From: Oxynema sp. CENA135
Lineage (GTDB): Bacteria; Cyanobacteriota; Cyanobacteriia; Cyanobacteriales; Laspinemataceae
NCBI RefSeq assembly: GCF_016632315.1
Contig: NZ_JAEOXH010000002.1
Span: forward strand, 1-32,159
DNA length: 32,159 nucleotides
Reading direction: 5' to 3'
Of the stretch, positions 781-28,515 are shown piece after piece. Below the pieces are notes generated by a model. That model ran no database searches, was not told the DNA's origin, and saw nothing but the letters and a program-made list of their open reading frames with translations. How positions within the stretch are numbered: position 1 is the first letter of the stretch; the number at the start of each line of letters is the position of its first letter. The translations under genes and the position numbers were made by a program.

Positions 781-1510
781 GCGCTATCGAGAGTGGGTGG
801 ATCTTGAGCCGGATCGATCGTAATCGTGAAGGTTTGAGCTGCCGAGGTATCGACCCCACCATTCGCCGTCCCGCCACTGTCTTGCACGACCACATCAAAA
901 GTAGCCGTACCGGAAGCATCTGCAGCAGGGGTGTACGTCAGGTTGCCACTCGCATCAATTGCCGGAGTGACGTCAAACAAACTGGGGTCGCTGATATTGC
1001 TGACCGTATAGGTAGCGGTTTGGGTCGCTTCGTCTGTCGGTCCGGGGTTGAAGGCGGTGACCCAACCATTGACTGTTTGTGCGCCAGCATCTTCGGTGAT
1101 GGTCGGTGGATCGGTTGCCGTGAAACTCGGTTGGTCGTTAACCGGATTGATATTAATGATTGCATTGGCGGTTGCAGTTTCGACGGCGTTGTTTTGAACC
1201 GAAACCGTCAACGTTTGTGATGCGGGGGGTGTATCGGAAGTGTTCTCGTACTGGAGCTTCTGGGCAATGCTAGAAATATGGGTGTCATCGACAATCGCAG
1301 GCGGCGGCACTGCCTGGGTGACCACCACATCATCAATGAAGAGCTGAGCTCCTGCGACTGTACCCCCACTAAAGTCAAAGGTACCGGAAACGAAGACAAA
1401 CTTATACTGACCTTGCTGGGTAATAGTCACCGTCTCCGTCGCCCAAGTAGTGGAGGCAGCACCACTATCGCCAGTTTCGTCGAGAATGGTGAGGATATCC
1501 GCTAGATAAA

Positions 1511-5556: not shown

Positions 5557-5633
5557 ATTCTAGTAAGATGTATGAGTAACATTGATAATTTATGCCGCAC
5601 AATTCACGATGGTTCACAAGGCGATCGTCCGGT

Positions 5634-6701: not shown

Positions 6702-6855
6702 ATGTCTTGGATTTAGTGAAACAATCGTCGTTTTATTTTTGAAAATTTTATTAACTTCTTAATATAGCAAATTTTGACTAAATTGCCTAGAAACTTATCC
6801 CTTTATCCCCCGAGATACTATTTTTGATGAAAGAGCGATAAAATAAAAAAAATCT

Positions 6856-7866: not shown

Positions 7867-8519
7867 AAATAGACGATAATAGACAAGGACAGTAAACGAC
7901 GATCGCAGGTCTAGTTTTAGGGTAGGGCAACGGGGGCGATCGCGCAATTGTCGGCCATAAAAAAGCTCGCCGCAGCGAGCTGTAACTTAGACCAATTAAA
8001 GGAGTTGCACGAGGAAGAAGCAAAAAATTAAACCTTGGCGGTTAATGTTTCTAATGCGGCTAATTTTCGATCGAGATCGAGGCGTTGGTTGTAGTCCGTT
8101 TCGACGAAAGCTCCAATAATCTTTCGGTGGCGAACTATACCACAGGTTACCGGAATCGGTGATTCAAAGCTGGTATCGCCGTTATCTTCAGTTAAGTTCA
8201 GTCCGAATTGTTCGGTTTGACTTTACTCTAAATATCAAGTTAACGCTCAAAGCTTAAAAAAGAATAATTTTAAGCTAAAATTCATCTGAGAAAATCCTGA
8301 GATTTTGCTGAGTGAGACGGTCGGAGGCATTTTCGTTAACAACTGAAGTACGATCGCACTTAAGCGGGCGAGATCTACGTCCTGTTAATAATTGCTAAAA
8401 TTTGGCGTGTCATGACGATCGCAACGACTACAATTGACCTAGATGGGTAAAACTCCATATAAATAAGGACGATCCCGGGTAAAGAAAGGGATGAAAAGCA
8501 GCAAAAGGGGTTGTAAACA

Positions 8520-11393: not shown

Positions 11394-13854
11394 GGGCGGA
11401 ACACTGCTGCTGGAGGAAGTTGCGAACGGCTTCGGCAGAATCGAGTTGCAAGGCGGTGGCGGCGATCGCCTCGGCTTCGGGAACGCTAAAACGGGCGATC
11501 GCGGCTTTGACGGCGGCGATCGCCCGGGGGTTGAGGCTCAATTCGGCGATGCCCAAACCGACGAGAAGGGGGACCGCCGCCGGATTGGAAGCCAACTCGC
11601 CGCAGACGGCGACGGGAACCCCTACAGCCCCGGCGGCGCGGGTGGTCTGGGCGATCGCGCGCAACACGGACGGTTCGAGGACGTTGGCGAAAGGAGACAC
11701 TTGAGGGTTGGTGCGATCGGCGGCGAGATAATATTGGGTCAGATCGTTGGTTCCGATACTGAAAAAGTCTACCTCGGCGGCGAAGCGATCGGCGATCGCC
11801 ACGGCGGCGGGAATTTCGACCATCATCCCCACGGCGATCGCCCGGTTGTACGCCCGGTCTTCCCCGTCGAGTTCGGCTTTGGCGCGATCGAGCAGGGCTT
11901 TGGCGGCGCGCCATTCGGCTAAGGTGGCGACGGTGGGAAACATCACTTTAATTTGGCGTCCGTGACTGGCTTTTAAAATTGCGCGCAACTGAGTTTTAAA
12001 CAGATCCGGGCGATCGAGGAGCAGGCGGATACCGCGCAAGCCCAAAAAGGGGTTATTTTCCGGCGGTAACTGCAACCAGGGTAAAGGTTTGTCCCCGCCG
12101 ACATCTAGGGTGCGAATCACCGTGGGCCGATTTTTAAAAATATCGGCGATCGCCCGATAGACTTGTGCTTGTTCTTCTTCGCCCGGGGGAATCGGGCGAT
12201 CGAAATAAAAAAACTCGGTTCGCAACAGGCCCACCCCTTCGGCGCCGCTATTGCGCGCCAGTTGGGCATCGGGGATCCCCATTACGTTAGCGAGGAGGGT
12301 AACGCGCCGTCCGTCGCGGGTTTGGGTCGGCGAGGGGGCGATCGCCCGAGGTTCGCTCACCTGTCGTTTGGCGGCGAGGGTGCGACGGCGATCGCGATCG
12401 GGTTCGACCCACACTTCTCCCGTGTCGCCGTCGAGGGCGATTTCGGTGCCGTCGGCAACCCCCGCGAGGCGATCGCCGAGTCCCATCACCGTCGGAATGC
12501 CGAGGTTTCGGGCTAAAATCGCGCTGTGAGAATTGGCACTGCCTCCGGTGGTGCAGATGCCTAAAATCACTTTGGGATCGAGTTGGGCGACTTCGGAAGG
12601 GGTCAGGTCTCCCGTCAGCAAAATCCCCGGATCCCTCAGTTCGAGGCGGACGCTACTATTGCCGGATAAGGCGCGCAAAACGCGAATGCCGATATCGTTT
12701 AAATCGCTCGATCGCGCCTGGAGATAGGGGTCGTCGAGAGTTTGATAGCGCCTTACGGTCTCGTCGATCGCCCGCTTCCACGCCGCGATCGCCCCGTATT
12801 TTTCCACAAAAATATCGTGACGGATCCCTTTCCAGAGGTAGGGATCTTGCAAGTATAACTGATGGGCCTCGAAAATCGCCCCAGTTTCCGGGGAAGACAT
12901 GGCATTAGCGAGCATCTGCATTTGACGGCGGGCATTTTGTACCGCCAATTGCAACGTATCCCACTCACTTTCCGGGTCTTCTGCCATCCCTTCGCGCACT
13001 TCCGGCAGTACGGGGTGATAGCGAACGAGTGGCCCGAGGGCGACTCCCGGCGAGGCGGCGATCCCCTGGACGCCTTCCCCGGTCGGGGCGATCGGCGCGC
13101 TGGTGGCGGCTTCCGGGGCGTCGGCGTTCCCTTCGTGAAAGTTGCACTGGATCAGTTCTTTCAAAGCTTGCACGGCGTTCCCGGCGTCGATTCCCCGGGC
13201 GGCGATCGCGATTTCGTCCCCCTGACGCACCCCCAAGGTCATCAGTTGGATGATACTTTTCCCGTCGATCGCCTCGGACGAGCGCCTGAGATTGCTGACG
13301 GCGATCGACGCGGTAAATTGTGAGGCGATTTGGACGAACAGGGCGGCGGGTCGGGCGTGAATGCCGAGGCGGTTGCAGACCGTGAGACGCAGTTGTGAGG
13401 TCGGCTCCCCCGTCGTGGCGTTGGGCGCGGGTCGGGACGCGGTTTCGATTCCGAGTTGGGAGGCTTTCGGGGTCAGGGCGCTGCGGGCTTCGGCGATCGC
13501 GCGATCGAGGTCCGCCCCGGTGGAGACCGCCACGGCGGCGGCGATCGCCCCTTCGACTAAAGGAGCTTCGCACAATCGCACCCGGGAACGGCGATCGGCC
13601 TCTAAAAATTCTAAGGCCATTTCCGCACTCATCACCGCACTGCCCAAGTCCATTAACAGCAACACCCCCTCGCCGCGATCTGCCGCTTCGATCGCCGCCA
13701 GCACGCGCATCGGGTCGGTTCCAAAGGGATTTTCCGGGTCGTCTATCCCCGCCGCGATCGCGATCTCTACCGCCGATCCGACCATTTGCCGTGCCAGTTC
13801 TCGCACGGCGGCAGCTAATTTCTCGCTGTGAGAAACAATAACAATTCCAACCAT
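11386..13854 (-). CDS. dhaM: Multiphosphoryl transfer protein DhaM. It is an EIIA(Man)-like DhaM domain + HPr domain + PTS Enzyme I domain fusion, and is the PEP-dependent phosphoryl donor for DhaK/DhaL.
   Basis: The N-terminus MVGIVIVSHSEKLA is the DhaM/EIIA-Man fold with a phospho-His region. The central HPr-like LTVCNRLGIHARPAALFV has the His15-equivalent GIHARP. The C-terminal Enzyme I part has GGSANSHSAILARNLGIPTV (phospho-His), IGTNDLTQY and AVCGELAS. The ATG is at 13854. Confidence 0.85.
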   Translation of the reverse strand: MVGIVIVSHSEKLAAAVRELARQMVGSAVEIAIAAGIDDPENPFGTDPMRVLAAIEAADRGEGVLLLMDLGSAVMSAEMALEFLEADRRSRVRLCEAPLVEGAIAAAVAVSTGADLDRAIAEARSALTPKASQLGIETASRPAPNATTGEPTSQLRLTVCNRLGIHARPAALFVQIASQFTASIAVSNLRRSSEAIDGKSIIQLMTLGVRQGDEIAIAARGIDAGNAVQALKELIQCNFHEGNADAPEAATSAPIAPTGEGVQGIAASPGVALGPLVRYHPVLPEVREGMAEDPESEWDTLQLAVQNARRQMQMLANAMSSPETGAIFEAHQLYLQDPYLWKGIRHDIFVEKYGAIAAWKRAIDETVRRYQTLDDPYLQARSSDLNDIGIRVLRALSGNSSVRLELRDPGILLTGDLTPSEVAQLDPKVILGICTTGGSANSHSAILARNLGIPTVMGLGDRLAGVADGTEIALDGDTGEVWVEPDRDRRRTLAAKRQVSEPRAIAPSPTQTRDGRRVTLLANVMGIPDAQLARNSGAEGVGLLRTEFFYFDRPIPPGEEEQAQVYRAIADIFKNRPTVIRTLDVGGDKPLPWLQLPPENNPFLGLRGIRLLLDRPDLFKTQLRAILKASHGRQIKVMFPTVATLAEWRAAKALLDRAKAELDGEDRAYNRAIAVGMMVEIPAAVAIADRFAAEVDFFSIGTNDLTQYYLAADRTNPQVSPFANVLEPSVLRAIAQTTRAAGAVGVPVAVCGELASNPAAVPLLVGLGIAELSLNPRAIAAVKAAIARFSVPEAEAIAATALQLDSAEAVRNFLQQQCSALS

Positions 13855-13924
13855 AACCCTGTTGTGCTATCAGTCTGCCGATCGCCATCTGCCGAGTGGA
13901 TGTTCGCGGCAGAAGATCGCTCCT

Positions 13925-15376
13925 TCAGTCCTCTCCTTCATTCAAGGCGTCGAATTGGTCGCGATCGATCCGACCGAGATCGTATAAAGTTTTGACAATC
14001 TCCGAAATCGACAACACCGAATGAGCGCGATATCCCGCCTGTTGCAAGCGGTCTTTCACCCCTTTTTCGTGGTCGATAAACACGACGATATCTTCCACCT
14101 TCAACCCCGTCGATTCTAACTTTTGCGCTCCTTCGATCGCGCTTTTTCCCGAAATTAAAATATCGTCAATCACCACTACGGTTTCTCCTGGGTTGAAATT
14201 CCCCTCGACCAGACGCCGCGTTCCGTGAGCTTTGACCTCTTTGCGCGGAAAAATCATCGGATGATTTAACTTTAGCGCCAATCCCGTTGCCGTCGGCAAG
14301 GCGCCGTAAGGAATTCCGGCGATCCGATCGAACTTTAACCCTCGGACGATTTCGGCATAAGCATTAATAATTTTATCAAAAATTTGGGGATTCGAGATAA
14401 TTTTTCTCAAGTCGATATAGTAAGGAAAAATCGATCCCGAAGCTTGTACGTATTCGCCAAATAAAATACAACCAATATCGTACAGTTGTAAGATCAAATC
14501 CGCGTGGGGATGGCGATCGCCCGGCGGCAGATCCGGCAACCAGACCGGACAGGCTTGCACCTCGTGAGGGAGGCGAATTCGCACTTGATTGACCGTTTCG
14601 CGCAATCCGGCGACCAACGCCTTCAAATTCGGACTGGCGAGCCAATCTTGGGGGATCGGCACGATCGCCCCGGCCCCGGTCGCGTTCAAGCCTGCGGCTA
14701 AAATCTGCTCTAAATTGCTCCCTTCCGCCCAAATACTGCGAAGTAACAGGGGCCTTTCCGGGGCGATCGCCCGTACCCGCGCCAATGCTTCCGGTTGCGC
14801 CGTCCCCACTTCTAACGCCACTTGTTCCGGGGTTCCCCAGGTTTGCACTTCTGCGACCAAATGCAGGTAAAAGGGGGATTGAGGACGGGGAAACTCCTGC
14901 AGGGAGACCGCCGCCGGGTTCGAGGTGTGACAGAGGACGAAAATTGCCTTATCCGGGTAGAGGAGAAACGGCGCCGCTAAATCCTGTCCGGGATAGGGAC
15001 TTAAGGTCACTGCATCGACCTGCCAGCGATCGAAAATCGTGCGTGCGAATAGGGTGCTACTGTTGAGATCGCCGTGTTTCGCGTCTAGAATCACCGGAAT
15101 TTCCGAGGGAATCCGGCTTAGAATGCGTTCGAGTAAGGCCATTCCCGGCGGCCCCAAAGCGGTGTAAAATCCCAAGGTCGGCTTGTAGGCGCAAACCGCA
15201 TCTTTCGTGTGAGCGATCGCCTCTTTCAACCAAATTTCGCACTTTTGTACTAACTCGTCGAGATCCCGAGGGGAACCGAAGCGAGACGGTAATGTTTCCG
15301 CACTCGGATCGAGTCCGACGCACAACAGGCTTTGATTGCAGTCAATGGCGGTTTGTAATTTTTCAGCAAAATTCAT
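13925..15376 (-). CDS. pyrFE: Bifunctional orotidine-5'-phosphate decarboxylase / orotate phosphoribosyltransferase (PyrF-PyrE fusion).
   Basis: The N-terminal half has LCVGLDP...ILDAKHGDLNSST, a type-2 OMP decarboxylase. The C-terminal half has the PRPP-binding motif VVVIDDILISGKSA of the OPRTase. 483 aa. Confidence 0.85.
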   Translation of the reverse strand: MNFAEKLQTAIDCNQSLLCVGLDPSAETLPSRFGSPRDLDELVQKCEIWLKEAIAHTKDAVCAYKPTLGFYTALGPPGMALLERILSRIPSEIPVILDAKHGDLNSSTLFARTIFDRWQVDAVTLSPYPGQDLAAPFLLYPDKAIFVLCHTSNPAAVSLQEFPRPQSPFYLHLVAEVQTWGTPEQVALEVGTAQPEALARVRAIAPERPLLLRSIWAEGSNLEQILAAGLNATGAGAIVPIPQDWLASPNLKALVAGLRETVNQVRIRLPHEVQACPVWLPDLPPGDRHPHADLILQLYDIGCILFGEYVQASGSIFPYYIDLRKIISNPQIFDKIINAYAEIVRGLKFDRIAGIPYGALPTATGLALKLNHPMIFPRKEVKAHGTRRLVEGNFNPGETVVVIDDILISGKSAIEGAQKLESTGLKVEDIVVFIDHEKGVKDRLQQAGYRAHSVLSISEIVKTLYDLGRIDRDQFDALNEGED

Positions 15377-15579
15377 CGCGATTTAGGTGAGAGGGAATGA
15401 GAGAGGGCTTCTCAACGCCAGGGCGTTCGCGAAGCGGCTCCCTTGGAGCATCGCCTCGCCGTCGATCGGACTTCATTGTACTTAAAGGGTCGATGTTGAT
15501 AGAATACCCCCCAATGGGTAGATTTCGATCCAATGTGAAGCCGCGATCGTCGGATACGAAACCTCCAACAAAAGAACCA

Positions 15580-17502
15580 CTAAGCTGACAGTTGACGACC
15601 CGATTGTTGTTCTTTAATCCGTTCCAAACTCCCTGTAGGAATCGAATCGATCAACGATCGCGTATAGGTTTGTTGCGGTTGGCGATAAATTTGTTCCGCC
15701 GGGCCGATTTCCTCAATTTTCCCCTGATTCATCACCATAATGCGATCGCTCATAAACTTGACCACACTTAAATCGTGGGAAATGAAGATATAAGTTAACT
15801 CGAACTCCCGTTGCAACTCTTTTAATAAATTCAGCACCTGGGCTTGCACCGAAACATCCAACGCCGAAACCGACTCGTCGCAGATAATAAACTTCGGATT
15901 TAATGCCAAAGCCCGCGCAATGCAAACCCGTTGCCGTTGACCGCCCGAAAACTCGTGAGGATAGCGGTTCATCAACTCAGGATTTAAACCGACTCGTTCC
16001 AACAAATAGGCGGCGCGATCGCGGTGAGTGGCCTTTTTCTGCTTGGGAAAATGAATCCGCAACGGTTCCATCACCAACGCGCCGATATTCATACGCGGAT
16101 TGAGCGAACCGAAGGGATTTTGAAAGATAATTTGCATTTGTTGGCGCACTTGGCGCAGGGATAACCCCTCTAAATCGATTACATTTTTGCCGTCAAAAAT
16201 GACCTCGCCTCCCGTCGGTTCTACCAAGCGCAACAAACTGCGGGCTAAGGTAGTTTTGCCACAACCGGACTCGCCGACTAAACCGAGAGTTTCGCCCAAA
16301 TAGACCTCGAACGAAACCCCTTTGACCGCCATAAAATAGCGTTGCGTTTCGCCGAAAATGCCGCGAATGGGAAAGGCGACTTGCAAGTTATTCGCCGAGA
16401 GTAACACCCCGCGTTCTTGTAATTGATTCAAACGGCGATCGCTCTCGACAGCACTGATTTCTGTAGGGGGGGCTTCTGTAGGGGTTGCCCCTGCTGCCGC
16501 CGCTTCCGGGGTCGGCGATCGATCGGGGGATTTCGATCGCATTTCCACTTCCCCGGAGTCGTCGGTTACCTCTTCCATAAAATCGGCCACCGTGGGCAGG
16601 TAAACCAGGCGTTTGTCCGGTTGGGGACGACAGGCTAACAGTCCTTTTGTATAAGGATGTTGGGGATGGGCAAAAATATCGAACACCGAACCGGACTCGA
16701 CAATTTTGCCGCGATACATCACCGCCACGCGATCGGCAATTTCCGCAATCACGCCCAAATCGTGGGTAATAAAGATCATCGACATGCCCCGGGCGTCGCG
16801 CAACTCCCGCAATAATTGGAGAATCGAGGCTTGAACCGTCACATCTAAGGCGGTGGTCGGTTCGTCGGCTATTAATAGGGTAGGATTGCAAGCGATCGCC
16901 ATGGCAATCGTCACGCGCTGAATTTGACCGCCGGAGAGTTCGTGGGGATAGCGTTTGAGAATGGCGAGTTTGCGATCGTTAATGGCGCTGGCGATCTCGC
17001 GTTCGGTCATGCCCTCACCCCCGTCGAGACGGTCGCGCAACTGTTCGTCACTCGGGAGGAGTTTGACCTCTTGCAAGCGCGCCACCGCTTGTCTGCGGGC
17101 TTCCGAGACCGAGACCTTTTGGTGCATTAAAATGGCTTCGGTCATTTGGAAACCGATATCGTAGACCGGATTGAGGGCGCTCATCGGTTCCTGAAAAATC
17201 ATCGAAATCCGACTGCCGCGATAGGGTTGTTTTTCTTCCCGTGACAGGCGTTGCAAGTTCACCGGGTCGGCGGCGGCGTCGTCGCGAAACCAGATTTCGC
17301 CGTCGGCGACTTGACCGGGATTGGGGACCAATCCCATCACCGCTAAGGAGGTCACCGATTTTCCGGAACCGGACTCGCCGACAATGCCGAGGGTTTGACC
17401 GCGCCGAACCTCGAATGAAATCCCGTTAACGGCGGTAACGAGTTTTTCGTCGGTTTCAAATTGAACCTGCAAATTGCGAACGTCTAAAACCGTGTCACTC
17501 AT
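15580..17502 (-). CDS. Fused double ABC transporter ATP-binding protein (Dpp/Opp-type, GsiA/YejF-like tandem ATPase).
   Basis: It has two Walker A sites (GESGSGKSV and GESGCGKTT), two signature motifs (LSGGQIQR and FSGGQRQR), two Walker B sites ([12 protein letters not shown] and [12 protein letters not shown]), and Opp-type C-terminal extensions. No permease gene is adjacent in the window. Confidence 0.85.
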
Positions 17503-18446: not shown

Positions 18447-18482
18447 TCGTCATTTTGCTCGTCGAAGAGTCTTCGATTTCCA

Positions 18483-18510
18483 GTCCGCCGATTGAGGCGG
18501 GCTTTTTTTT
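18483..18510 (+). terminator. Rho-independent terminator of sodB.
   Basis: A GC stem ccgcc (18485-18489) / ggcgg (18496-18500), extendable to 7 bp, with a 6-nt loop gattga. It is followed by T8 (18503-18510). Confidence 0.7.
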
Positions 18511-18617: not shown

Positions 18618-20153
18618 ATGAGCGGTGAAAAACGGCGTTACGTGCGCGTTGAAGAGTCTCAATGGCGGCGGTTGCAAGAACAAGACAGCCGCCTACGATC
18701 GCTGCAATCCGACTTACCGGAGCGCTTGAATTTGCTGCGATCGCACTCCCAGCAAGCGTTCGAGCGGCAGTTACTCCCCCTGCAGCAACGGGCGCTCCAT
18801 CAAGCCCAACTCGCCGATCGCTTGAGGACGAATTTAGCCGATCTCGAACGGGAAAACGCCCGCCGCCTGGAACGACAGCAACAGGAGTTTCGCTCGACGG
18901 TAGAACGGCTTCAAACTCAACAGGCGCAAGCTCTCCAGCTCCAAGCCGATCGCCTCGACGCCACGGCGCGCCTCGGTTTGGAACGGCAGCGTCAGGAATA
19001 TTTGCAACTGCACCGACAGCAGCGCCAGGAATGGCTGAGGACGGTGCAACAGCGCGATCGCGCTTTCCAGGAGGCGATCGCCACGGAACGAGCCGCGAGA
19101 GAAGCTACCGAAGCCAAGTTAACGGGACAACTCAACGCGATCGTACGGGGGATCGAGGCGGAAAAAAGCCGGAAAATCGAACTCGCCGAGTCCTTGTGGG
19201 CCGATGTGGACGCTATCTGGCAACAAACCGATCGCCAGTACCGCCACGAACAGTTCGCGCCGGGACAGTTAAGCGTTTTACGGCGCCAGTTGGATCTGGC
19301 GCGGGACAATCTGACGGCGGGACTCGGCGAAGCGGCGATCGCCACGACTCAGAAAACTTATCTAGAATTGAATCAACTGCGGCTCGACCTGGAACGCCAA
19401 GAACAACAATGGCTGTTACTCTATCACGCGATTTCGACGGATTTAGGCGAATTGCTCGCTCAAGTCAAAGCCCACCGCGAGTGCGAACTCGAAATCGGCG
19501 AGGGAACGGAGGCGGAACGCTTTAAGGTCGAGGTGGATTATTGGTCGAAAGGGGCGTTAAGCGAGTACGAAGGGGAACTCGCGACGCTCGAAACGGAGTT
19601 AAAACAAGGGGAACGAACCCTCACGACGGCCCGACTCGAAGCGATCGCCGATCGCCTCGAAAGCTTGCAACCCCGTTTCGATGAAATTGTCGCGGCGGCG
19701 AAATTGGCGATTCTCAGTTCGCAAATGCGCGCCGAAATTGCCGATTGTGTGGTCGAAGTTCTCGGATCTTTGGGTTATACTCTGGTCAATCCCGAAACCG
19801 ATGCGTGTTATCAGACGGGCGATCGCCGCGAAGCCTATGCGGTGAAAGTGAAAAATATCGCCGGGGATGAGGTGGTCACGGTGATTGCACCGGATCGCGA
19901 CTTTGGCGCCAATTCGATCTCGATTAACAGTTTCAGTCCCACCCTGATCGACGAAACCGCCACTCGGGAGAACGCGCGGGCAATTTTCCAACTGTTGGAC
20001 GAGGCGGGAGTAGAGGCGATCGGCGAGTTGGAATGTTACGATCGCCCTCGCGAAGAATATCGCCGTCTGTGGGGCGATCGACCGTCGGGAAGCGAGAGTC
20101 GGGAGTCGGGAATCGGGAGTCGGGGATCCCGTCGCGATCGGATTGAAGAATAA
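18618..20153 (+). CDS. Long coiled-coil protein (Q/R/E/L-rich) with a C-terminal Ser/Arg-rich tail. Function unknown. It is the first gene of the co-directional cluster.
   Basis: 511-aa ORF dominated by heptad-like RLERQQQEF...LQLQADRLDATARLGLERQRQEYLQL. The tail is GSESRESGIGSRGSRRDRIEE. The alternative-frame ORF 18662-19525 is Arg/Pro-rich junk. Confidence 0.6.
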   Translation: MSGEKRRYVRVEESQWRRLQEQDSRLRSLQSDLPERLNLLRSHSQQAFERQLLPLQQRALHQAQLADRLRTNLADLERENARRLERQQQEFRSTVERLQTQQAQALQLQADRLDATARLGLERQRQEYLQLHRQQRQEWLRTVQQRDRAFQEAIATERAAREATEAKLTGQLNAIVRGIEAEKSRKIELAESLWADVDAIWQQTDRQYRHEQFAPGQLSVLRRQLDLARDNLTAGLGEAAIATTQKTYLELNQLRLDLERQEQQWLLLYHAISTDLGELLAQVKAHRECELEIGEGTEAERFKVEVDYWSKGALSEYEGELATLETELKQGERTLTTARLEAIADRLESLQPRFDEIVAAAKLAILSSQMRAEIADCVVEVLGSLGYTLVNPETDACYQTGDRREAYAVKVKNIAGDEVVTVIAPDRDFGANSISINSFSPTLIDETATRENARAIFQLLDEAGVEAIGELECYDRPREEYRRLWGDRPSGSESRESGIGSRGSRRDRIEE

Positions 20154-20414
20154 GCGCGATCGCCCGTCTTTGACGAGGGGGCGGCGATGGGTTTCACCGA
20201 ACCATTCAAGACCCCCTCGACGGCGATCGCTCCTCTGAAAAATCCCCTCTCAAGTTTCGCCATTGCCAGCGATCGAAGCCATAGACGCGATCGAAACAGA
20301 AAACGGATTCGAGTAATTTTCCTAACATTTCCCCGGCGATCGAATTGATAAACTAAAAGAAGCTTTCAAGCACTTTTCAAACCATAAAATTTATCTCTAA
20401 AATACCCAATCCCC

Positions 20415-20455
20415 AATCTAAAATCTAAAATCTAAAATCTAAAATCTAAAATTCC
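20415..20455. repeat. STRR-like heptamer tandem repeat (TCTAAAA/AATCTAA) x5.
   Basis: ccccaatctaaaatctaaaatctaaaatctaaaatctaaaattcccc, directly upstream of the first WD40 gene. Confidence 0.85.
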
Positions 20456-20521
20456 CCAATCTGCTCGAAAGTTTCCCTTAATAGAACGGGTTTCAGGGTG
20501 AATCTGAGAGTGAATAAGGCC

Positions 20522-22378
20522 ATGTCTGAATGTCCGGTATGTCGAACCGAGTATGTCGAAGGAGAGCAGAGCATCTGCTCGAATTGCGGGTGGGATTTAA
20601 GCCCCGAACCGCCTCAACTTGCTGAAAATTTGACGGAAATCTATCTCGAAAAAGAGCGAGCTAAGTTAAAATGGGCGCGCAAAATTTGGGCAGAAACGAC
20701 CGACCAAGGTAAATCGGTCAAAGAATTAGAGTGGAAATTGGCCGATATTGAAGGACAACTCTCGAAAGTTTGGGGTCGCTTCGATCTCGCGGCGAAAGAA
20801 CGAGTTCACATTCAAGAACAAGTCAGTCAACTGTTCGCCTGGTTGGATGAAGTCAGCCAAGACCGCAATCATTTTAAGGAGGAGTTAGAGCGCGATCGCC
20901 TCTTTCACGAAACCCAATCCGAACATTTCGAGAATCAGATCGGCCTGATTTTCTCCAAATTAGAACAAAGTGACACCGAGCGATCGCAGGTTCAAACCCA
21001 ACTCAGTCGTATTTGGTCCCATATCGAAGCCCCGAGACCATCCCCAACGACTGCTCCTTCCGATGGCGATCGCGTAGGGGCGACCGAGGAGAATCGCGCC
21101 GCCGATTCCCCAGATGGCACTTCTTCCGTCGGCAAAGAAGCCGAAATCGCCGCCTTACAAGCCCAAATTAGCGAGCTAAAAGCCAAATTAGAACAGTCCG
21201 ATCGCGAACGGTTGGAATTGCAATCGCAAATTCACAGCGAACGGCGCCAAGTCAGCAGCTTGCAAAGCCAACTCGAAAAAACCCGCGAGAGTCTGGAAAA
21301 AACGAACGAAAATCTCACCCACACTCACGCCGAATCTCATACCGTCGAATTGCTGATCGATGCGTTAGGCGATCGCTCCGAAGCCATCCAAGAATTTGCC
21401 TACGCCATTCTCAAGCGAACTCGTTCCCCCCGAGCCCGTCAAGCCCTCGAACAGTACAAACCCTATCGCCTGTTTCGCTGCGTGCGCACCTTAAAACATG
21501 ACGACGCCGTGCGATCGGTGGCGATCGCCCCTCAAGGCAATATTTTAGTCAGTGGCAGTAATGACAAAACCGTTAAAATTTGGGATCTAGAAAGCGGTCA
21601 GCCGATGCGAACCTTACGCGGACACCTCGGATCGGCGATCGCCGTCGCCATTTCCGCCGACGGCAAAACGATCGCCAGTGGAAGCGGCGACAACACCATC
21701 AAAATCTGGGACTTACAAAGCGGCGAACTGCTGACCACCCTCCACGGTCATGGCGGTTGGGTCAACACTGTCGCCTTCTCTCCCAAAGGACGCACCCTCG
21801 CCAGTGGCGCCGCCGACAAAACCATCAAACTCTGGAACCTCGACACCCAAGAACTCCTCGCCACCTTCTACGGACACAGTACCGCCGTGCGTTCCGTCGT
21901 CATCTCCCCCCAAGGAAACGTCCTCGCCAGTGGCAGTAACGACAACACCATCAAAATCCGCAATCTTCTCACCGGAGAACTCATCCATACCCTCACCGAA
22001 CATAGCGGTTCCGTCTGTTCCGTCGCCGTCAACTACGATGGCAGCATTCTCGCCAGTGGAAGCAACGACAACACGATCAAACTCTGGAATCTCGGCACCG
22101 GAAAACTCCTGCACACCCTTTCCGAACATTCCGGTCCGGTCAGTTCCGTCACCATCAGTTCTCAACATACCCTCGCCAGTGGTTCCGACGACGGAACCAT
22201 TAAAATTTGGCATCTCGAAAGCGGTCGCCTCATTCACACGATCCCCGGCGTCAAAACCCCCGGATACGGTCACGAAGGCTATGTTTTATGTACCGCCATC
22301 AATCAAGATGGCAATACGATCGTTAGTGGCTCCGATGATGGCACAATCAAGATATGGGGTGTTTCTGCAGTGGAGTAG
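20522..22378 (+). CDS. Zinc-ribbon + coiled-coil + WD40-repeat protein. The frame is open from a GTG at 20498, but the likely start is the ATG at 20522.
   Basis: The N-terminus MSECPVCRTEYVEGEQSICSNCGWDL is a CxxC-x12-CxxC ribbon, followed by EKERAKLKWARKIW. A coiled coil with LEQSDRERLELQSQIHSE follows. Then come ≥8 WD40 blades (GH...SGSxDxTIKIW/LW...). Confidence 0.8.
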   Translation: MSECPVCRTEYVEGEQSICSNCGWDLSPEPPQLAENLTEIYLEKERAKLKWARKIWAETTDQGKSVKELEWKLADIEGQLSKVWGRFDLAAKERVHIQEQVSQLFAWLDEVSQDRNHFKEELERDRLFHETQSEHFENQIGLIFSKLEQSDTERSQVQTQLSRIWSHIEAPRPSPTTAPSDGDRVGATEENRAADSPDGTSSVGKEAEIAALQAQISELKAKLEQSDRERLELQSQIHSERRQVSSLQSQLEKTRESLEKTNENLTHTHAESHTVELLIDALGDRSEAIQEFAYAILKRTRSPRARQALEQYKPYRLFRCVRTLKHDDAVRSVAIAPQGNILVSGSNDKTVKIWDLESGQPMRTLRGHLGSAIAVAISADGKTIASGSGDNTIKIWDLQSGELLTTLHGHGGWVNTVAFSPKGRTLASGAADKTIKLWNLDTQELLATFYGHSTAVRSVVISPQGNVLASGSNDNTIKIRNLLTGELIHTLTEHSGSVCSVAVNYDGSILASGSNDNTIKLWNLGTGKLLHTLSEHSGPVSSVTISSQHTLASGSDDGTIKIWHLESGRLIHTIPGVKTPGYGHEGYVLCTAINQDGNTIVSGSDDGTIKIWGVSAVE

Positions 22379-22424
22379 GGTAGGTCTATTGTCGGCCTGG
22401 AAGTTGTTCCCAATTCCCTACAGC

Positions 22425-22465
22425 ATCAATCTAAACTCTAAACTCTAAAGTCTACAATCTCAACC
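22425..22465. repeat. STRR-like heptamer tandem repeat (CTCTAAA/AATCTAA variants).
   Basis: atcaatctaaactctaaactctaaagtctacaatctcaacc, lying between the two WD40 genes. A related motif, atctcaactctaaaatctcaac, occurs at 17590-17612. Confidence 0.8.
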
Positions 22466-22469
22466 CCTC

Positions 22470-23570
22470 ATGGTATCCGATAACTTTTCCTTCTTAGAAA
22501 AGAAAATCAAGAGCCTAGAAGAACGCTTGCAACAAAGCGAACGAGAACGAGAACAACTGCGATCTCAACTGCAAACTTTAGGCGATCGCGCCCGCAGCCA
22601 AGCCCACCAACTCGCCCGTCTGGATCGCTATATCGAAGAATTTTTAAAATATCAACTGATTGAATGCGAAAGTACCTTAATCGGTCATACCAACTCCGTC
22701 AGTCAAGTCGCCATTGCTCCGGACGGTCAAACCTTGGCCAGCAGCAGTTACGATAAAACTGTAAAAATCTGGGATCTACACACCCGATCCGAACGCCATA
22801 CCCTAAACGGACATTCTAAATCCGTCAGTTGTCTCGCGATCGCCCCTGACAGCCAAACGATCGCCACCGGGAGTGATGACAAAACCATCAAAATTTGGAA
22901 CCTCCAAACTGGAGAACTCCTGCGCACTTTAAGCGGACATTCCGATTACCTTCGCGACCTCATTTATGGAGAAATCGGCGACAATTCGATTTCTATCCCC
23001 ATTTTAATCAGTGCCAGCGACGACACCACGATTAAATTTTGGAATGGGCACACTGGGGAACTCCTTCGCACCCTCACCGGACACGATGACTACGTTCACT
23101 CGTTAGCCCTCAGTCCCGACGGTCGTACTTTAGCCAGTGGTAGTGCAGATAACACGATTAAATTGTGGGATTTACAAAAGGGCGAAGCAATCCGCACCTT
23201 TGCCGGACATTCCCACTCAATTTACTCCCTCGTTTTCACGCCGGACGGTCAGATTTTAGTCAGTGCGAGTTTGGACAAAACGATTAAATTGTGGCACTTG
23301 GAAACGGGAACGAATTTTCAAACCTTAATCGGTCATTCGGACTTTATTAATGACATTGCTATCAGCCCGGATGGACGCACGATCGCGAGTGCCAGTTCTG
23401 ACAATACCATTAAACTCTGGAACCTCAAAACGGGTCAAGAAATTTGCAATTTAACCGGACATGCCAATACCGTATATTCGGTGATTTTTAGTCCGGATGG
23501 CTGCCGTTTAATGAGCAGCAGTGGCGATCGCACCCTTAAAATTTGGCGCTGGTTAGTCGAGGAACAATAA
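22470..23570 (+). CDS. Coiled-coil + WD40-repeat protein (7 blades).
   Basis: The N-terminal coiled coil LEERLQQSEREREQLRSQLQTL echoes the RERLELQ motif of the neighbouring genes. Seven WD40 repeats with GH...D.TIKIW/LW follow. 366 aa. Confidence 0.8.
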   Translation: MVSDNFSFLEKKIKSLEERLQQSEREREQLRSQLQTLGDRARSQAHQLARLDRYIEEFLKYQLIECESTLIGHTNSVSQVAIAPDGQTLASSSYDKTVKIWDLHTRSERHTLNGHSKSVSCLAIAPDSQTIATGSDDKTIKIWNLQTGELLRTLSGHSDYLRDLIYGEIGDNSISIPILISASDDTTIKFWNGHTGELLRTLTGHDDYVHSLALSPDGRTLASGSADNTIKLWDLQKGEAIRTFAGHSHSIYSLVFTPDGQILVSASLDKTIKLWHLETGTNFQTLIGHSDFINDIAISPDGRTIASASSDNTIKLWNLKTGQEICNLTGHANTVYSVIFSPDGCRLMSSSGDRTLKIWRWLVEEQ

Positions 23571-23697
23571 GAAGTCAAAACTCCTAAATATGGTGCGGGT
23601 ATCCCACCCGCCCTTTTAAAAAAAGTTAATTTCAAACTCTTTCAATTAGAACAAACTTAGTTTAGAATAATCTAAAAATAAAACAAACCAATCGATT

Positions 23698-26256
23698 GTG
23701 GTAGAACGAGTAACGTCGGGGTTAAATTTACACGCAGGCGATCGCTTTTTCGTGCTGTACGGAACGCAAACCAGCGATAGTTTCTGCACGAAAGATCTCG
23801 TTTTACAAGATATTGAAAGCATTCTCCATCACTATTTAAAGTCACGAGGATACGATCGCATCGTCTTCTATTCCGGCGTTAAAAAACTCTATTTCCTCGA
23901 TCGCCAATCGCGCGATCGCACGCGGTTGCAAGCTTCAGCAGACCCCTCCAACGCCCCGCCACCCGACCGACCGATGCAAGTCACTCCCGGTCCTCTCGGA
24001 CGCAAACGCCGCTTGTTAGGAAAGCAAACTGCATCGCCAAATCCCGCCGCATCGCCCAGTCCGGCGCCCTCAACCGAAGTAAGACCGCCCCAACGCCTGC
24101 AAGATGTCCAAATTTTGCCGTATTTTGAAACGTTAATGCAGGATACTCGCCAAAAATCGGCGATCGTTTTTGCCAATGCGGAAGATTTGGCGAACTTCGA
24201 CAACCGCCGCGAACTGTTCGGTCGTACTTTAGAATGGTCGCGTCTTCCCCCGAGTAATCGCAATCTGTGTATTTTTATTTTTCACCACGAAACGATCGAT
24301 CGCCTGCAAGAGTTTTGTCAGCAAGTCGGCTTTACTTTTTTGTCAAATTATGCAATAAATCGGCAGCAGGGCGATCGCCGCAGTTGTAATTTAGTGCGAC
24401 TAGCAGCCCCTAGCGCAAAAGAAATAGAGGCGTTAAGCGATTATTTTCGACTGAAGTTCGGCAAAGCCATCTCGTGGGAAAATCGTGCAAAGTTAATGCA
24501 ATGGATGGCGGCGGAAAATCGATCGCTCAATACCTGGTACGATCGCTTTAATGAAAGTGAGGAAATCTCGCTGAAAGCGGCGCGATCGCGGCGTTGGTTG
24601 ACGGGGGATGTCAGCGAAACCCCTGCCCTACAACGGTTAGAGGCGGCGATCGGCTTGCAAAACGTCAAAGAAACGATCCGCCGTCGGGCGCGATCGCTGC
24701 AAGTGCAACAAGAACGGGCGAAGCAGGGAAAGGCGATCGATCCGCCCCGATTGCATCTGGTGTTTAAAGGCAATCCGGGAACGGGAAAAACGACCGTCGC
24801 GCGCTTAATCGGCGAAATTTACCGAGATTTGGGGTTATTACAGCGCGGTCATCTGGTAGAAGTCGGCGGACGCGATTTAGTGGCGGGTTATGTCGGACAA
24901 ACCCATTTACGCACGAATGAAACGATCGATCGCGCGATCGATGGCGTCTTGTTTGTAGATGAGGCGTATGGATTGACCGAAGGCGGGGACGGGGATTTCG
25001 GACGGGAGGCGATCGAAACGTTACTCAAACGTCTGGAGGACGATCGCGATCGATTCGCGGCGATCGTGGCGGGATATCCGGCGAAAATGGACGCCTTTCT
25101 CGATGCGAATCCCGGTTTGCGCCGTCGGTTCCCCACGGAAATAGTTTTTGTAGATTACACGCCTGATGAGTTGTTGGGGATTCTACGGCAGCGCGTCGCC
25201 GCCGTCGCCGCCGACTTGTCCCCGGATCTAGAGGGGACTTTGTTGGATGTATTCGGGCAATTGTACGCCGAACGCGACGAAAACTTTGGCAATGCGGGAT
25301 TGGTGGAAAATCTGTTTCAGGAACTCGACGAACGGCGATCGCTCCGAGTTATCGAAACGGGTACGGATCCGGTACACTCGCCGTTCGAGCTTGCAGATTT
25401 ACCGCAAAAATATCGGGAGTTGGCCGATCGCGGCAAGGGCGATCGCGAGACGTTGGAAACATTGTTAGCGCAACTCGATCGCCTGGCGGGACTGCGATCG
25501 GTGAAAGTGGCGATCGCAGAATTAGTCGAAACCCAACTCGCCAACCGCCGCCTGCGAGAAGCGGGGTTAGACCCGGAGGGCGAATCTCACACCTATCACA
25601 TGGTTTTTACTGGCAATCCGGGAACGGGAAAAACGACCGTGGCGCGGTTGGTCGGCAAAATTTTTAAAGCCCTGGGATTATTGAAAAAAGGGGACTTTCA
25701 CGAAGTCGGACGCCCGGATTTAGTCGCGGGATACGTGGGACAAACGGCGGCGAAAACCGTAGGGGCGATCGATCGCGCGATCGATGGGGTATTATTTATC
25801 GATGAAGCCTACGCCCTGTCCCGAGGTCACGCCACGGATTTCGGACGGGAGGCGATCGATACTTTAGTCCCGTATTTGGAAAATTACCGCGATCGCCTCG
25901 TGGTCATTTTCGCCGGATATTCCCGAGAAATGGCCGAATTTTTAGCCGCCAATTCCGGGTTAACCTCTCGCATCGCCTATCAGATCGAATTCCCCGATTA
26001 CAATCCCGACGAATTACATCAAATATTCCTGAGTTTATGCGAACAGTCCCGGCGCATTTGTCCGCCAGAAGTCTCGGAAAAAGTTAGAGACTGGTGTCAA
26101 GATTTATATGCCAATCGACCGTCCAATTTCGGCAACGGTCGCGAGATTCGCAATTTTTACGAGGGGATGGTGAAGCGTCAAAAAAGCCGAATCGTCAGGG
26201 AAAATTTAAGTGGGGAAGCGATGTTAAGGTTCGCGATCGCCGATCTTCCGAAATAG
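23698..26256 (+). CDS. Tandem AAA+ ATPase of the CbbX/SpoVK/EccA type (two ATPase modules) with a ~330-aa N-terminal domain of unknown function. GTG start.
   Basis: Two near-identical modules: [24 protein letters not shown]...[10 protein letters not shown]...[20 protein letters not shown], and [24 protein letters not shown]...[10 protein letters not shown]...[20 protein letters not shown]. The N-terminal region ([45 protein letters not shown]..., with a Pro/Ala/Ser linker) is not recognisable to me. Confidence 0.85.
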
Positions 26257-26436
26257 AGGGAAAACTTCGGATGGGGGAACGGGTCAGTGTGGCTTTGTTT
26301 CCCCAATGTTAGCGATCGCGGCGAAAAGCGCCAGTTCCACTCGCCATCACGGTAAATCTAGCCCCTGGGGACTTGACTCTTCTCCGAAAACGGTTAAAAA
26401 GTGATAAGTTGCGAGATAATCTCTCAGGGGGAAGCA

Positions 26437-28515
26437 ATGGCGATGAAGATGTTTGCCCGTGACGACCGACCAACACAGGAGTACACCGCTTTGACCGTAG
26501 CGCATTGTCCCGTTTGTCAGACCCAGTATGCGGAAGGACAGGTCAAAACTTGTTCGACTTGCGGCTGGGATTTGACGCCGTATCCCCTGAGTTTGGGGCG
26601 CATTCCCGAGGGATTTCTCAGGAAGGAACGGGCGCAATTGATGTGGGCCCGCCAGCAGTGGGAGCAAACCCAGAAGCGTTTGAAGGGGGCGACGGAGGAA
26701 GAGGCGGCGCCCCAGCAGATGGAACGATCGCAACTCAAAACCCAACTCGAACTCGCCGAACAGGAGCGATCGGAGTTAGAATCCCTATTCAAGCAAACGG
26801 AAGAGGCATACTGGCAACTTCACCAACAGTACGAAACGTTAGAAAAAGAACATAAAAGCGCCCTCAAAGAGCGATCGCAACTCCAATCTTTTTTAAAAGA
26901 AGCGGAACAAGCTTACGAAGATCTGCAACAGCAGCTCGAACAAACTCAACAACAACTCGAAGATATCGACCGGGAAAATCAAACTTTTAAATCGCAAATT
27001 CACGAAGCGGCAACGGCTTACTGGCGCTTGCAGGATAAATTAGAATTGACGGAAAAAGCGCTATCTGCCCGGGAAAAAGCACTCAAAGAAGTCGAACCGA
27101 AATTACAAGAAGCCGAAGCAAAAAATGCCTTGCGCGAAGCCTCGCTCAAACAAGTACAAGGACAACTACAACATACGAAAAAACAACTGATTGCTTCTCA
27201 ACAGAAGCGATCGCAACTGCACGCCGAATTAGAGAAAACCAAATCGGAATTAGCGGCGTGCAGCCAAGAACTCGGCGACCTCCAACCGCAGTTACAACAA
27301 GCCGCAACGGCTTACTGGCAATTACAAACCGAACTCGCCGAAGCCCGGGGTCAACTCGAAACGGCACAAGTCGAAACCAGTCAGCCGAATCAGTTCGAGC
27401 AAATGTTGGCTGAAATGAGCGATCGCGCCCAAGAAGAACTCGATCGCGCCAACGCAGAAATCAATCAATTGCACTTGCAAATTAACGATCTCGAAAGCCA
27501 ACTGAGTAATAGCCAACAACAAACCCAAAGCCAAGAATCTCGACTTTCTTGGGTCAACGAAGAACGCAGCCAATTGCAAAGCAAACTCGATCGCGCCGAC
27601 CGCGAACGCCTCGAACTGCAACATCAACTTTCTCAAACCCAATGGCAGCTTGAAGTTGCCAATCAAGAAAACTCCCGCTTGCTCGATTCGGCGTTTACGA
27701 CCTCGCGAACCAGTCGCTGGGGGAATGCGTTTAAAACCTCGGTGGTTTTCCTCTTATTACTCGCGTCGATCAGTCCGTTTTTTATTATCTTGCTCAATCC
27801 CAAACTTTCCCAACCTTTATTTAATATGGCTTTGCGGAAAGGCTATATCAAAAATGCCACCAGTCGGGATTTGTCGAAACTAAATTTTGCGGGATTAAAT
27901 TTGGATCGCGTCAACTTTAGCGACGCCAAACTGAATAACGCCGATCTCGAAGACAGCAGCTTGATCGAGGCCAATTTTCAAGGGTCGAACCTCAATGGGA
28001 GTAACTTGCAAAATGCCAATTTAAGCGGCGCCATGCTGATGAATGCGAGCTTGGATTGGGCGAATTTGAAGAATGCGAATTTGCAATTTGCGAACTTAGC
28101 GAGTGCGAATTTAGTCCGCGCGAATTTAAGTGATGCCAACCTTGCGGGAGCGAATTTATTAGATGCGGATATCGATATTAATACGACGAAAATCGATCCG
28201 GAAGATTTGCTCAATTGGAAAATTGTTAATTTGCCGCGTCGTAACCGCCAGTTAGCGGGATTGAATTTGACGGATTTTAATTTAAGTTCGGCGAGTTTAG
28301 TCGAGGCAAATTTGCAAAATGCGACGATGAGAAATGTCAACTTAACTGATGCAGATTTGCGCGGGGCGAAGTTAACGGGAGCGGATTTAACGGGGGCGGA
28401 TTTGAGCGGTGCTAAACTCGCTGGTGCCGACTTTACGAATAGCGTTCTGATGCGGGTGAAGACGAACAATTTGACGATTTGCCCGAATGGAAGAACGGGG
28501 CCGTGTAGTTTTTAA
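26437..28515 (+). CDS. Zinc-ribbon + long coiled-coil + single TM helix + C-terminal pentapeptide-repeat protein. The frame is open from a GTG at 26401. The ATG at 26437 has a GGGGGA RBS.
   Basis: The N-terminus CPVCQTQYAEGQVKTCSTCGWDLTPYP followed by RKERAQLMWARQQW is paralogous to the N-terminus of the 20522 gene. The coiled coil has recurrent AATAYWQLQ and DRERLELQHQL motifs. The TM segment is VVFLLLLASISPFFIILL. It is followed by ~45 pentapeptide repeats (ANLSGAMLMNASLDWANLKNANLQFANLASANL...). Confidence 0.75.
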   Translation: MAMKMFARDDRPTQEYTALTVAHCPVCQTQYAEGQVKTCSTCGWDLTPYPLSLGRIPEGFLRKERAQLMWARQQWEQTQKRLKGATEEEAAPQQMERSQLKTQLELAEQERSELESLFKQTEEAYWQLHQQYETLEKEHKSALKERSQLQSFLKEAEQAYEDLQQQLEQTQQQLEDIDRENQTFKSQIHEAATAYWRLQDKLELTEKALSAREKALKEVEPKLQEAEAKNALREASLKQVQGQLQHTKKQLIASQQKRSQLHAELEKTKSELAACSQELGDLQPQLQQAATAYWQLQTELAEARGQLETAQVETSQPNQFEQMLAEMSDRAQEELDRANAEINQLHLQINDLESQLSNSQQQTQSQESRLSWVNEERSQLQSKLDRADRERLELQHQLSQTQWQLEVANQENSRLLDSAFTTSRTSRWGNAFKTSVVFLLLLASISPFFIILLNPKLSQPLFNMALRKGYIKNATSRDLSKLNFAGLNLDRVNFSDAKLNNADLEDSSLIEANFQGSNLNGSNLQNANLSGAMLMNASLDWANLKNANLQFANLASANLVRANLSDANLAGANLLDADIDINTTKIDPEDLLNWKIVNLPRRNRQLAGLNLTDFNLSSASLVEANLQNATMRNVNLTDADLRGAKLTGADLTGADLSGAKLAGADFTNSVLMRVKTNNLTICPNGRTGPCSF

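Follow-up and report, generated by a model that had tools for sequence, protein, structure and literature searches.

Ternary vWA-MoxR (VMAP/iSTAND) systems combine an AAA+ chaperone core and a conserved partner with highly variable domains, which in their cyanobacterial versions come from a repertoire of FGE-sulfatase/FGS, GUN4, WD40, TPR and pentapeptide domains (PMC7159879). DO-GTPase systems are defined by a DO-GTPase together with GAP1, some of them with HSP70; zinc ribbons are common in them, and they are nearly absent from cyanobacteria (Kaur et al. 2020). According to PMC11513918, the SpoVK/CbbX/EccA clade of AAA+ ATPases consists of narrow-substrate chaperones that have variable N-terminal recruiting domains, dedicated substrates and no links to peptidases. 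Here we describe a cluster of five genes at positions 18618 to 28515 of a 32,159-nucleotide stretch of DNA from the cyanobacterium Oxynema sp. CENA135 (contig NZ_JAEOXH010000002.1, positions 1 to 32,159, forward strand; this whole stretch is hereafter called the window), and we compare its products, named P1 to P5 in gene order, with these systems.

The cluster resembles the vWA-MoxR systems in its AAA+ core (P4), its conserved partner (P1) and its highly variable domains of the same cyanobacterial repertoire, and also in being sporadic, mobile and enriched in filamentous taxa. In contrast to them, P4 is a tandem AAA+ ATPase of the CbbX/SpoVK/EccA clade, the variable domains are carried by a zinc ribbon (ZnR)-helix-coiled-coil unit and not by vWA, and no enzymatic death effectors were found here. 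MoxR, vWA and VMAP gave no match in the five proteins or in the neighbours at related loci, and CbbX, SpoVK or such tandem AAA+ proteins are never mentioned in Kaur et al. 2020 (PMC7159879) and 2021. The initial annotation of this DNA had likened the cluster to the logic of NTPase-dependent conflict and signalling systems; the AAA+ core and the same variable repertoire agree with that view, but no toxic effector domain was found, and what stands is a resemblance only. As described below, we consider it probable, on balance, that the five genes are a local, reduced version of a conserved, horizontally mobile hub-and-adaptor system that likely serves conflict or stress surveillance or signalling. 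The system of P1, P4 and ZnR-module proteins appears to be undescribed so far: as the initial annotation had held for a system of exactly this composition, no description was found in open-access papers or on bioRxiv, the 'ZnBd' operons in Fig. 3A of PMC11513918 not having been compared.

Results

P1, P4 and ZnR-module proteins form a conserved gene neighbourhood

All five co-directional genes of the initial annotation were recovered as open reading frames (ORFs) on the + strand. P1 (18618..20153) is a helical protein of 511 amino acids (aa) and the proposed scaffold. P2 (20498..22378, 626 aa), the putative adaptor of slot A, consists of a ZnR-helix module, a coiled coil and a 7-bladed WD40 propeller, and P3 (22470..23570, 366 aa) of a short coiled coil and WD40 repeats without the ZnR module. 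P4 (23698..26256, 852 aa) combines an N-domain with two AAA+ modules, and P5 (26401..28515, 704 aa), the putative adaptor of slot B, carries a ZnR-helix module, a long coiled coil, one predicted transmembrane (TM) segment and pentapeptide repeats. The successive intergenic gaps, from P1-P2 to P4-P5, measure 345, 92, 128 and 145 nt.

Scanning one genome per species, 185,579 genomes altogether, with an alignment of the P4 N-domain revealed 26 loci. As the scan relied on two peptide patterns, this number is a minimum. The hosts are nearly all filamentous cyanobacteria, namely Oscillatoriales, Trichodesmium (including T. erythraeum IMS101), Stigonema, Calothrix, Tychonema, Microcoleus, Lyngbya PCC 8106, Aetokthonos and Aerosakkonema; the remainder are a few unicellular cyanobacteria (Prochloron, Crocosphaera) and two Chloroflexi. 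Domain-wise tblastn together with blastp was used to map the 21 informative loci, those with 2.5 kb or more of sequence 5' of P4. Among these, 18 loci from more than 10 cyanobacterial genera have a P1 homologue of full length (41-58% identity) directly next to P4, upstream and on the same strand, and 16 of the 21 hold one to five ZnR-module genes, which are typically 3-35 nt from the start or stop of P4 or overlap it. The pairwise identities of P1 and P4 co-vary across 28 loci (r=0.93 overall, 0.68 within cyanobacteria), a correlation part of which common ancestry alone could yield. The converse scan, in which metagenome loci were seeded on the ZnR module alone, found P1 and/or P4 in at least 11 of 31 loci. 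The slot between P1 and P4 is filled by WD40, GUN4, FGE-sulfatase or dynamin proteins, by a short protein or by nothing, next to a core that is 50-65% identical. The modular multi-protein system proposed in the initial annotation is thus supported by adjacency in other genomes, where P1, P4 and ZnR-module genes are co-localised rather than scattered. The conserved unit is P1, P4 and the ZnR-module proteins and not the combination of WD40 and pentapeptide proteins, a pairing that was not seen in the other loci.

Two P4 loci without P1 (L001 and L003) both have a TPR-like ORF of ~242 aa upstream, which may be the alternative partner in a P1-less subtype.

P4 is a tandem AAA+ ATPase with a family-specific N-domain

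P4 begins with a family-specific N-domain of ~330 aa (23698..24687, + strand), a candidate adaptor- or substrate-recognition domain, followed on the same strand by the AAA+ modules D1 (24688..25467) and D2 (25468..26253). Each module is of the AAA plus AAA_lid_6 type (Pfam AAA 3e-30, AAA_lid_6 8.5e-21), and the two align with each other at E=2.5e-82 in hhalign. Among solved structures in the PDB, the closest to D2 is CbbX (3zuh/3syl, E=1.5e-50) and the closest to D1 is EccA1 (9lur, E=1.1e-47). The first ~330 aa matched nothing in Pfam, NCBIfam or PADLOC, relaxed thresholds included, nor did they match the PDB or any phage protein. Hence the description of P4 as a double CbbX-type AAA+ ATPase with a novel N-domain stands. 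The N-domain is rare, with 7 matches in a word-indexed search of 5.8 billion proteins, and its conservation extends to distant loci, where identity falls to 27-31%. The idea, prompted by reading the sequence, that it might be a degenerate third AAA+ module found no support and stays a lead: in hhalign against the D1 and D2 modules of the family, E was 0.15, with a trivial boundary match only.

Walker A (GNPGTGKT), Walker B (DEAY) and the pore loop (GYVGQT) are kept in both D1 and D2 among 33 homologues. From these motifs both modules are predicted to be catalytically active, and their intactness in both fits a translocating double ring; P4 presumably forms a double-ring hexamer.

By sequence, both modules belong to the SpoVK-EccA-like clade, their top NCBIfam matches being SpoVK, EccA and CbbX, and they share AAA_lid_6 with it. 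The P4 sequence also shows the AGY sensor-1 and NxGL(R) motifs; D2 matches the latter only partly, because Thr takes the position of the first Arg and an Arg follows two residues further on. P4 differs from the clade in being a tandem of two modules predicted to be active, in its ~330-aa N-domain, which in the searches run was found only in the P4 family, and in its P1 and ZnR partners, which are unlike Rubisco, type VII secretion system (T7SS) substrates or MurG. It is not CbbX proper, a single AAA module of ~300 aa, given its tandem architecture with an N-domain and a score of 376.6 bits against TIGR02880 (cut-off 459.25). Nor is it EccA, as its 415.9 bits against TIGR03922 lie below the cut-off of 466.65, and a Pfam scan detected no TPR, an EccA trait, in the N-domain. 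SpoVK (TIGR02881) was reached with 497 bits against a cut-off of 423, a score summed over two matched stretches. SpoVK is reported to be specific to sporulating Bacillota (PMC11513918), and the hosts of P4 are cyanobacteria; P4 is probably a paralogous member of the clade and not an orthologue. Genes for rbcLS, T7SS or sporulation were present neither in the window nor in any related locus. A clade without peptidase links fits a role in remodelling rather than degradation.

Some P4 copies look decayed, being frameshifted or truncated. Those of L002 and L024 (Prochloron-type) are split into 3-4 ORFs, that of L001 is cut down to one AAA module (578 aa), and L025 holds a truncated P1 beside a P4 with an altered N-terminus; L020 is also listed among these loci. 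The copies may be pseudogenes or assembly errors.

P1 defines a family of hypothetical helical proteins

P1 matched no family in Pfam, NCBIfam or PADLOC, relaxed thresholds included. Its own family comprises at least 121 clusters of ~500-aa proteins, every one of them annotated as 'hypothetical', with a near-invariant MSG start. The AlphaFold 2 (AF2) model of P1 (predicted local distance difference test score (pLDDT) 80, predicted template modelling score (pTM) 0.73) runs from an N-terminal beta-hairpin through long helices to a small C-terminal alpha/beta domain (residues ~396-474; 19803..20039, + strand). Since the model consists mostly of long helices, it agrees with the initial view of a 511-aa coiled-coil protein, and fold comparison of P1 returned no convincing structural relative. 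We also considered P1 as a PspA/ESCRT-III protein, for which searches gave no support. In contrast to the PspA/Vipp1/ESCRT-III systems with an AAA+ partner, where the ATPase has an inactive N-terminal copy (PMC11237479), both modules of P4 are intact and P1 is not PspA-like.

One metagenomic protein (P0006, 217 aa) has a P1-like N-terminus (MSGETLKLVKVEEIELRQLR) and continues as a P4 N-domain from about residue 145; it could be a P1-P4 deletion fusion or a chimeric assembly.

The ZnR-helix module is a protein family with exchangeable partners

From 30 copies at these loci the module has a consensus of ~60 aa, CP[VI]CxTEYxEx5CxxCGWDLTPYPxxFxxIPxxFLxKExxKLxWAKxxW, with 4 invariant Cys and 1 invariant Trp in the alignment. 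As a word-indexed search with the 63-aa module gave short fragments only, we used an exhaustive hidden Markov model (HMM) search of 1.84 billion representatives instead, which identified 315 clusters at E<=1e-3, 153 of them at E<=1e-10. Nearly without exception the module occupies residues 1-80 of these proteins. No Pfam threshold was reached (DZR_2 18.1 bits against 27, Zn_Ribbon_1 15.9 against 25), and the generic sub-threshold matches cover only the ribbon part. By its alignment, the combination of ZnR, PYP linker and KExxKLxWAKxxW helix is a distinct family for which no model exists. The number of clusters, the fixed N-terminal place and the merely sub-threshold Pfam matches indicate a specific family rather than a ubiquitous generic zinc ribbon, the outcome that would have counted against the initial annotation.

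In the module proteins the ZnR-helix is followed by a coiled coil and then by a variable domain. GUN4 (24), FGE-sulfatase (16) and WD40 (11) were the C-termini counted among 120 representatives; inside P4 loci TPR, dynamin-like GTPase, GUN4 and coiled-coil-only forms occur, and among otherwise unclassified module proteins there are a few fusions to SepF (2), FtsK, PP2C and SH3. A minority have TM segments. The initial proposal of one module on different scaffolds proved right and far broader than supposed, the exchangeable C-termini overall being WD40, TPR, pentapeptide, GUN4, FGE-sulfatase, dynamin, Lcl_C and Sel1, but the particular combination of WD40 and pentapeptide is not conserved.

P2 and P5 carry the module and P3 has lost it

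The N-terminal module postulated for both P2 and P5 is indeed shared, the two proteins matching in BLASTP at E=2e-19 with 39% identity over 103 aa. In P2 the module lies at 20522..20695 (+ strand; CPVC...CSNCGWDL...KERAKLKWARKIW), the true start of the protein probably being the ATG at 20522, and the WD40 beta-propeller at 21458..22375 (+ strand; Pfam WD40 E=2.4e-80, 7 repeats). An orthologue of P2 (L004_6840) shares 51% identity with it from end to end and holds the same position in its locus. In P5, whose start is probably the ATG at 26437, the module (26497..26676) was placed by its match to P2 and by the family alignment; further along the + strand come a predicted TM segment (27730..27795), a hydrophobic stretch FKTSVVFLLLLASISPFFIILL picked up by a crude hydrophobicity scan, and the pentapeptide-repeat domain (27841..28512; Pfam Pentapeptide E=2.2e-41, 139 bits against a cut-off of 20.2).

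P3, like P2, has 7 WD40 repeats (272 and 262 bits, respectively, against the Pfam cut-off of 27). The best relatives of P3, L037_60 (58% identity), L033_182 and L004_8732, are without exception ZnR-module proteins whose alignment to P3 begins only at their own residue ~63-65, which indicates that P3 is an N-terminally truncated paralogue that lost the module; no ZnR remnant was found upstream of P3. Thus P3 does consist of a short coiled coil and WD40 repeats, as the initial annotation said, but as a truncated ZnR-coiled-coil-WD40 paralogue rather than a type of its own.

A coiled-coil signature had also been proposed for P2, P3 and P5. Local similarity was confirmed between P2 (AKLEQSDRERLELQSQI) and P5 (SKLDRADRERLELQHQL), but not for P3, where E=0.065 is not significant. 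We rejected the signature as a second shared module, as it occurs in 3 of 68 ZnR proteins at these loci, two of which are the window's own, and in about 5 of 143 representatives.

Distant loci, further partners and a complete plasmid copy

Where the P1 homologue is a distant one of 28-30% identity (P0135, P0139; loci L029-L032), the very next gene again encodes a protein that joins a homologous N-domain (E~1e-20) to two or three AAA modules. At two of these loci (L029, L031) neighbouring proteins have the ZnR-helix fused to Lcl_C or Sel1 (HMM E=3e-9 to 2e-4); Lcl_C has a C-type-lectin-like fold. The distant loci L029-L032 are probably outside cyanobacteria.

Clustering of unassigned neighbours (L005-L026, L029, L031, L064) yielded recurrent families. 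The most frequent, beside P1/P4 in 22 loci, is an Hsp70-like ATPase of ~535-587 aa. Twelve loci each have a coiled-coil protein ('family C', ~340-360 aa) and a radical-SAM (S-adenosylmethionine) enzyme of the NrdG-like Fer4_12 type (~200 aa), and 8 have convergent DO-GTPase2-like genes. The Hsp70-like and DO-GTPase2-like genes, both also present on a Calothrix plasmid, are a likeness to the DO-GTPase systems (Kaur et al. 2020). The window, however, has neither a DO-GTPase nor GAP1; at related loci the DO-GTPase2 matches barely pass the cut-off (3.9e-6, 27.2 bits against 27) and are thus weak, and no GAP1 domain was detected.

A complete copy of the system (L064) resides on pCAL6303.02, a mobilizable MOBP plasmid of 56 kb from Calothrix sp. 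PCC 6303 (NC_019728.1, record 103-17330). Its gene order is Hsp70-family protein, P-loop/TPR protein, 4Fe-4S/radical-SAM enzyme, P1, AAA ATPase and ZnR-coiled-coil protein, the last starting 3 nt past the P4 stop, and RefSeq names all the cluster genes generically. Here the family-C domain forms the C-terminus of the P-loop/TPR (STAND-like) protein of 1316 aa, and three DO-GTPase-like and two 'family F' genes are convergent to the cluster.

Boundaries and surroundings of the cluster

The upstream boundary of the cluster is a strong terminator-like hairpin (18482..18503, + strand) that lies 3' of the superoxide dismutase (SOD) gene; its 8-bp stem contains 6 GC pairs and precedes a T7 run. No similar + strand terminator was found between the five genes, and an Rfam scan of the window returned no RNA family. 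Three intergenic spacers hold related heptanucleotide tandem repeats: (AATCTAA)x5.4 between P1 and P2 (20415-20452), (TCTAAAC)x3.6 between P2 and P3 (22430-22454) and, directly 5' of P1 (18505-18535), TTTTAGATT repeats, in which AATCTAA is present as its reverse complement. HIP1-like GCGATCGC sites are frequent too.

The flanking genes are ordinary and encode Dha kinase, phosphotransferase system (PTS) proteins, PyrFE, an ABC ATPase, SOD, MRJP and Ppk. On the - strand, DhaL and DhaK genes (4900-6701) are near a gene for an 822-aa multidomain DhaM-like PTS fusion with EIIA-man, HPr and enzyme I domains (11386-13854), and together they look like a phosphoenolpyruvate-dependent dihydroxyacetone kinase system. 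A single ORF of 483 aa (13925-15376, - strand), judged from its translation, is an apparent fusion of PyrF (orotidine monophosphate decarboxylase) and PyrE (orotate phosphoribosyltransferase). The window also contains, on the - strand, a TnpB/IS605 OrfB-type gene (1513-2727; OrfB_IS605 and Cas12f1-like TNB), adjoined by a low-GC stretch (2001-5000; GC 0.35-0.40 against ~0.55 elsewhere), and a C-5 cytosine DNA methyltransferase gene (6856-7947), whose adjacent ORFs show no obvious restriction partner.

Discussion

We propose that the system has an invariant core, formed by the P1 scaffold and by P4 with its N-domain and double-ring AAA+ part, and a variable arm of adaptors, each made of the ZnR-helix module, a coiled coil and an exchangeable binding or targeting domain. 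In the window the adaptors would be P2 with its WD40 propeller and P5 with its membrane-anchored pentapeptide domain, P3 being a decayed paralogue. The ZnR-helix module may dock the adaptors onto the core, via the P4 N-domain or P1; the docking partner is a guess, because P1 and P4 are without the module and no Rosetta-stone fusion links it to them. By ATP use and through its pore loops, P4 could then remodel or disassemble coiled-coil assemblies of P1 and the adaptors, and this remodelling would set the timing with which the C-terminal domains are engaged. Such a machine would most likely serve regulated surveillance or signalling of the conflict or stress type, a role to which the sporadic and mobile occurrence, the frameshifted or truncated copies, the hypervariable adaptor slot, the repertoire like that of Kaur et al. 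and the nearby DO-GTPases point.

The machines p97/Cdc48 with its cofactors and NSF-SNAP-SNARE combine a double-ring AAA+ ATPase bearing an N-domain, many adaptors with a common small docking motif but differing targeting domains, and coiled-coil substrates. Their likeness to the present system is an analogy, with no sequence or structural relationship and with docking that is putative here.

Several observations weigh against a conflict-type hub-and-adaptor system. Neither P1 nor P4 has the module, and none of 143 representatives shows it fused to them; as it occurs only among the variable proteins, the strict effector-associated domain (EAD) principle of the same adaptor domain on core and effectors (Kaur 2020/2021) does not hold. 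About 180 module proteins contained no fused nuclease, protease or TIR domain. Some ZnR genes are solo despite full 10-kb flanks (ZnR-GUN4 in L055 and L058, ZnR-WD40 in L045), and full-length P5 orthologues (L038 and L043, 44% identity) are likewise solo genes more than 10 kb from P1/P4; the tie of P5 to the core rests on its module and on its slot B position after P4, not on conserved synteny. PADLOC-DB v2 has no model for any component and gave generic matches only (IetA 2e-14 on the AAA core, LmuB/JetC on the coiled coil), and the window's flanks are ordinary metabolic genes rather than a defence island. The Hsp70-like, radical-SAM, family-C and DO-GTPase genes are all absent from the 32-kb window, and because these frequent partners are missing the window may hold an incomplete or inactive copy. 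For the P4 N-domain, AF2 gave a poor model (pLDDT 46) from a multiple sequence alignment of only 8 sequences, so that it was not used for a fold search. Finally, the fusions of the module to SepF and dynamin, together with the missing toxic effectors and the housekeeping flanks, call for caution and make a cell-biological role a rival to be taken seriously.

In that rival the genes would still form one system, but a housekeeping one: a dedicated chaperone machine that builds up or takes apart coiled-coil structures of the cytoskeleton, of cell division or of membranes in cyanobacteria, mostly filamentous ones, and that the adaptors direct to sites such as the divisome, the membrane or the lumen side of the thylakoid. 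We regard this as unlikely, yet worth serious attention. Every partner is rich in coiled coils, the SpoVK/CbbX/EccA clade consists of specialised assembly or activation chaperones without peptidase links (PMC11513918), the module occurs in fusion with SepF (2), with a dynamin-like GTPase and with TM anchors, and the lack of toxic effectors, the housekeeping flanks of the window and the mostly filamentous host genera all suit such a function. A housekeeping machine is, on the other hand, hard to reconcile with a distribution as sporadic as 26 loci (a lower bound) in 185,579 species genomes, with named P1-family matches that include no standard model strain, or with a plasmid-borne copy in Calothrix, pseudogenised copies and a hypervariable adaptor slot; the co-occurring DO-GTPases and the FGE-sulfatase/GUN4/TPR/WD40 sensor repertoire are moreover as in conflict systems.

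Two other explanations deny that there is a dedicated system. That abundant WD40 and pentapeptide proteins flank an unrelated AAA+ ATPase by chance would account for the solo occurrence elsewhere of P5 orthologues and of several ZnR-WD40 and ZnR-GUN4 genes, for P3 without the module and for the absence of the WD40 and pentapeptide pairing from other loci. But P1, P4 and ZnR genes are found together, tightly spaced or overlapping, in 16-18 of 21 loci, and the trio occurs across phyla as well as on a plasmid. At least 35% of the ZnR-seeded loci hold the core, against a rough expectation of about 0.3% if a gene in a ~7 Mb genome fell by chance within 10 kb of one given locus. A chance neighbourhood is therefore very improbable, and for the core it is largely refuted. 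Even less credible is that P4 does a known job of its clade (Rubisco activation by CbbX, chaperoning in type VII secretion by EccA, control of the spore cortex by SpoVK) among incidental neighbours. Its strong PDB matches and composite NCBIfam scores (SpoVK 497, EccA 416, CbbX 377 bits) would suggest so, yet the CbbX and EccA scores are under the curated cut-offs, and that of SpoVK passes only by summing two modules. The unique N-domain, the tandem architecture and the linkage to P1 and ZnR proteins instead of rbc or ecc genes also speak against a known job, as do the missing rbcLS, T7SS and sporulation genes in the window and related loci and the specificity of SpoVK for sporulating Bacillota reported in PMC11513918.

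Returning to the hub-and-adaptor system, a bolder version of it seems to us possible, if just short of an even chance: an undescribed, cross-phylum and plasmid-mobile AAA+ system in which the ZnR-helix would be a universal docking tag for sensor or targeting domains on a P1/P4 hub, with the Hsp70-like and glycyl-radical-activase-like enzymes assisting, and which would be a prokaryotic counterpart of p97 with its cofactors or an immune 'signalosome'. The domains plugged into such a hub would be WD40, TPR, pentapeptide, GUN4, C-type-lectin-like, dynamin and SepF. With a complete plasmid copy in the cultured Calothrix sp. PCC 6303, the system is open to direct testing. If the proposal is true, the P1 family, the P4 N-domain, the ZnR-helix module and the family-C domain would gain a shared functional context, and the common zinc ribbon at the start of many cyanobacterial proteins named 'GUN4 domain-containing', 'WD40' or 'FGE-sulfatase' would be explained. 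The tandem CbbX/SpoVK/EccA-clade AAA+ ATPase would then be a fourth kind of NTPase core among the modular conflict and signalling systems of multicellular bacteria, and the biology of a little-understood AAA+ clade, in which every member studied has one dedicated client, would extend to a multi-adaptor hub.

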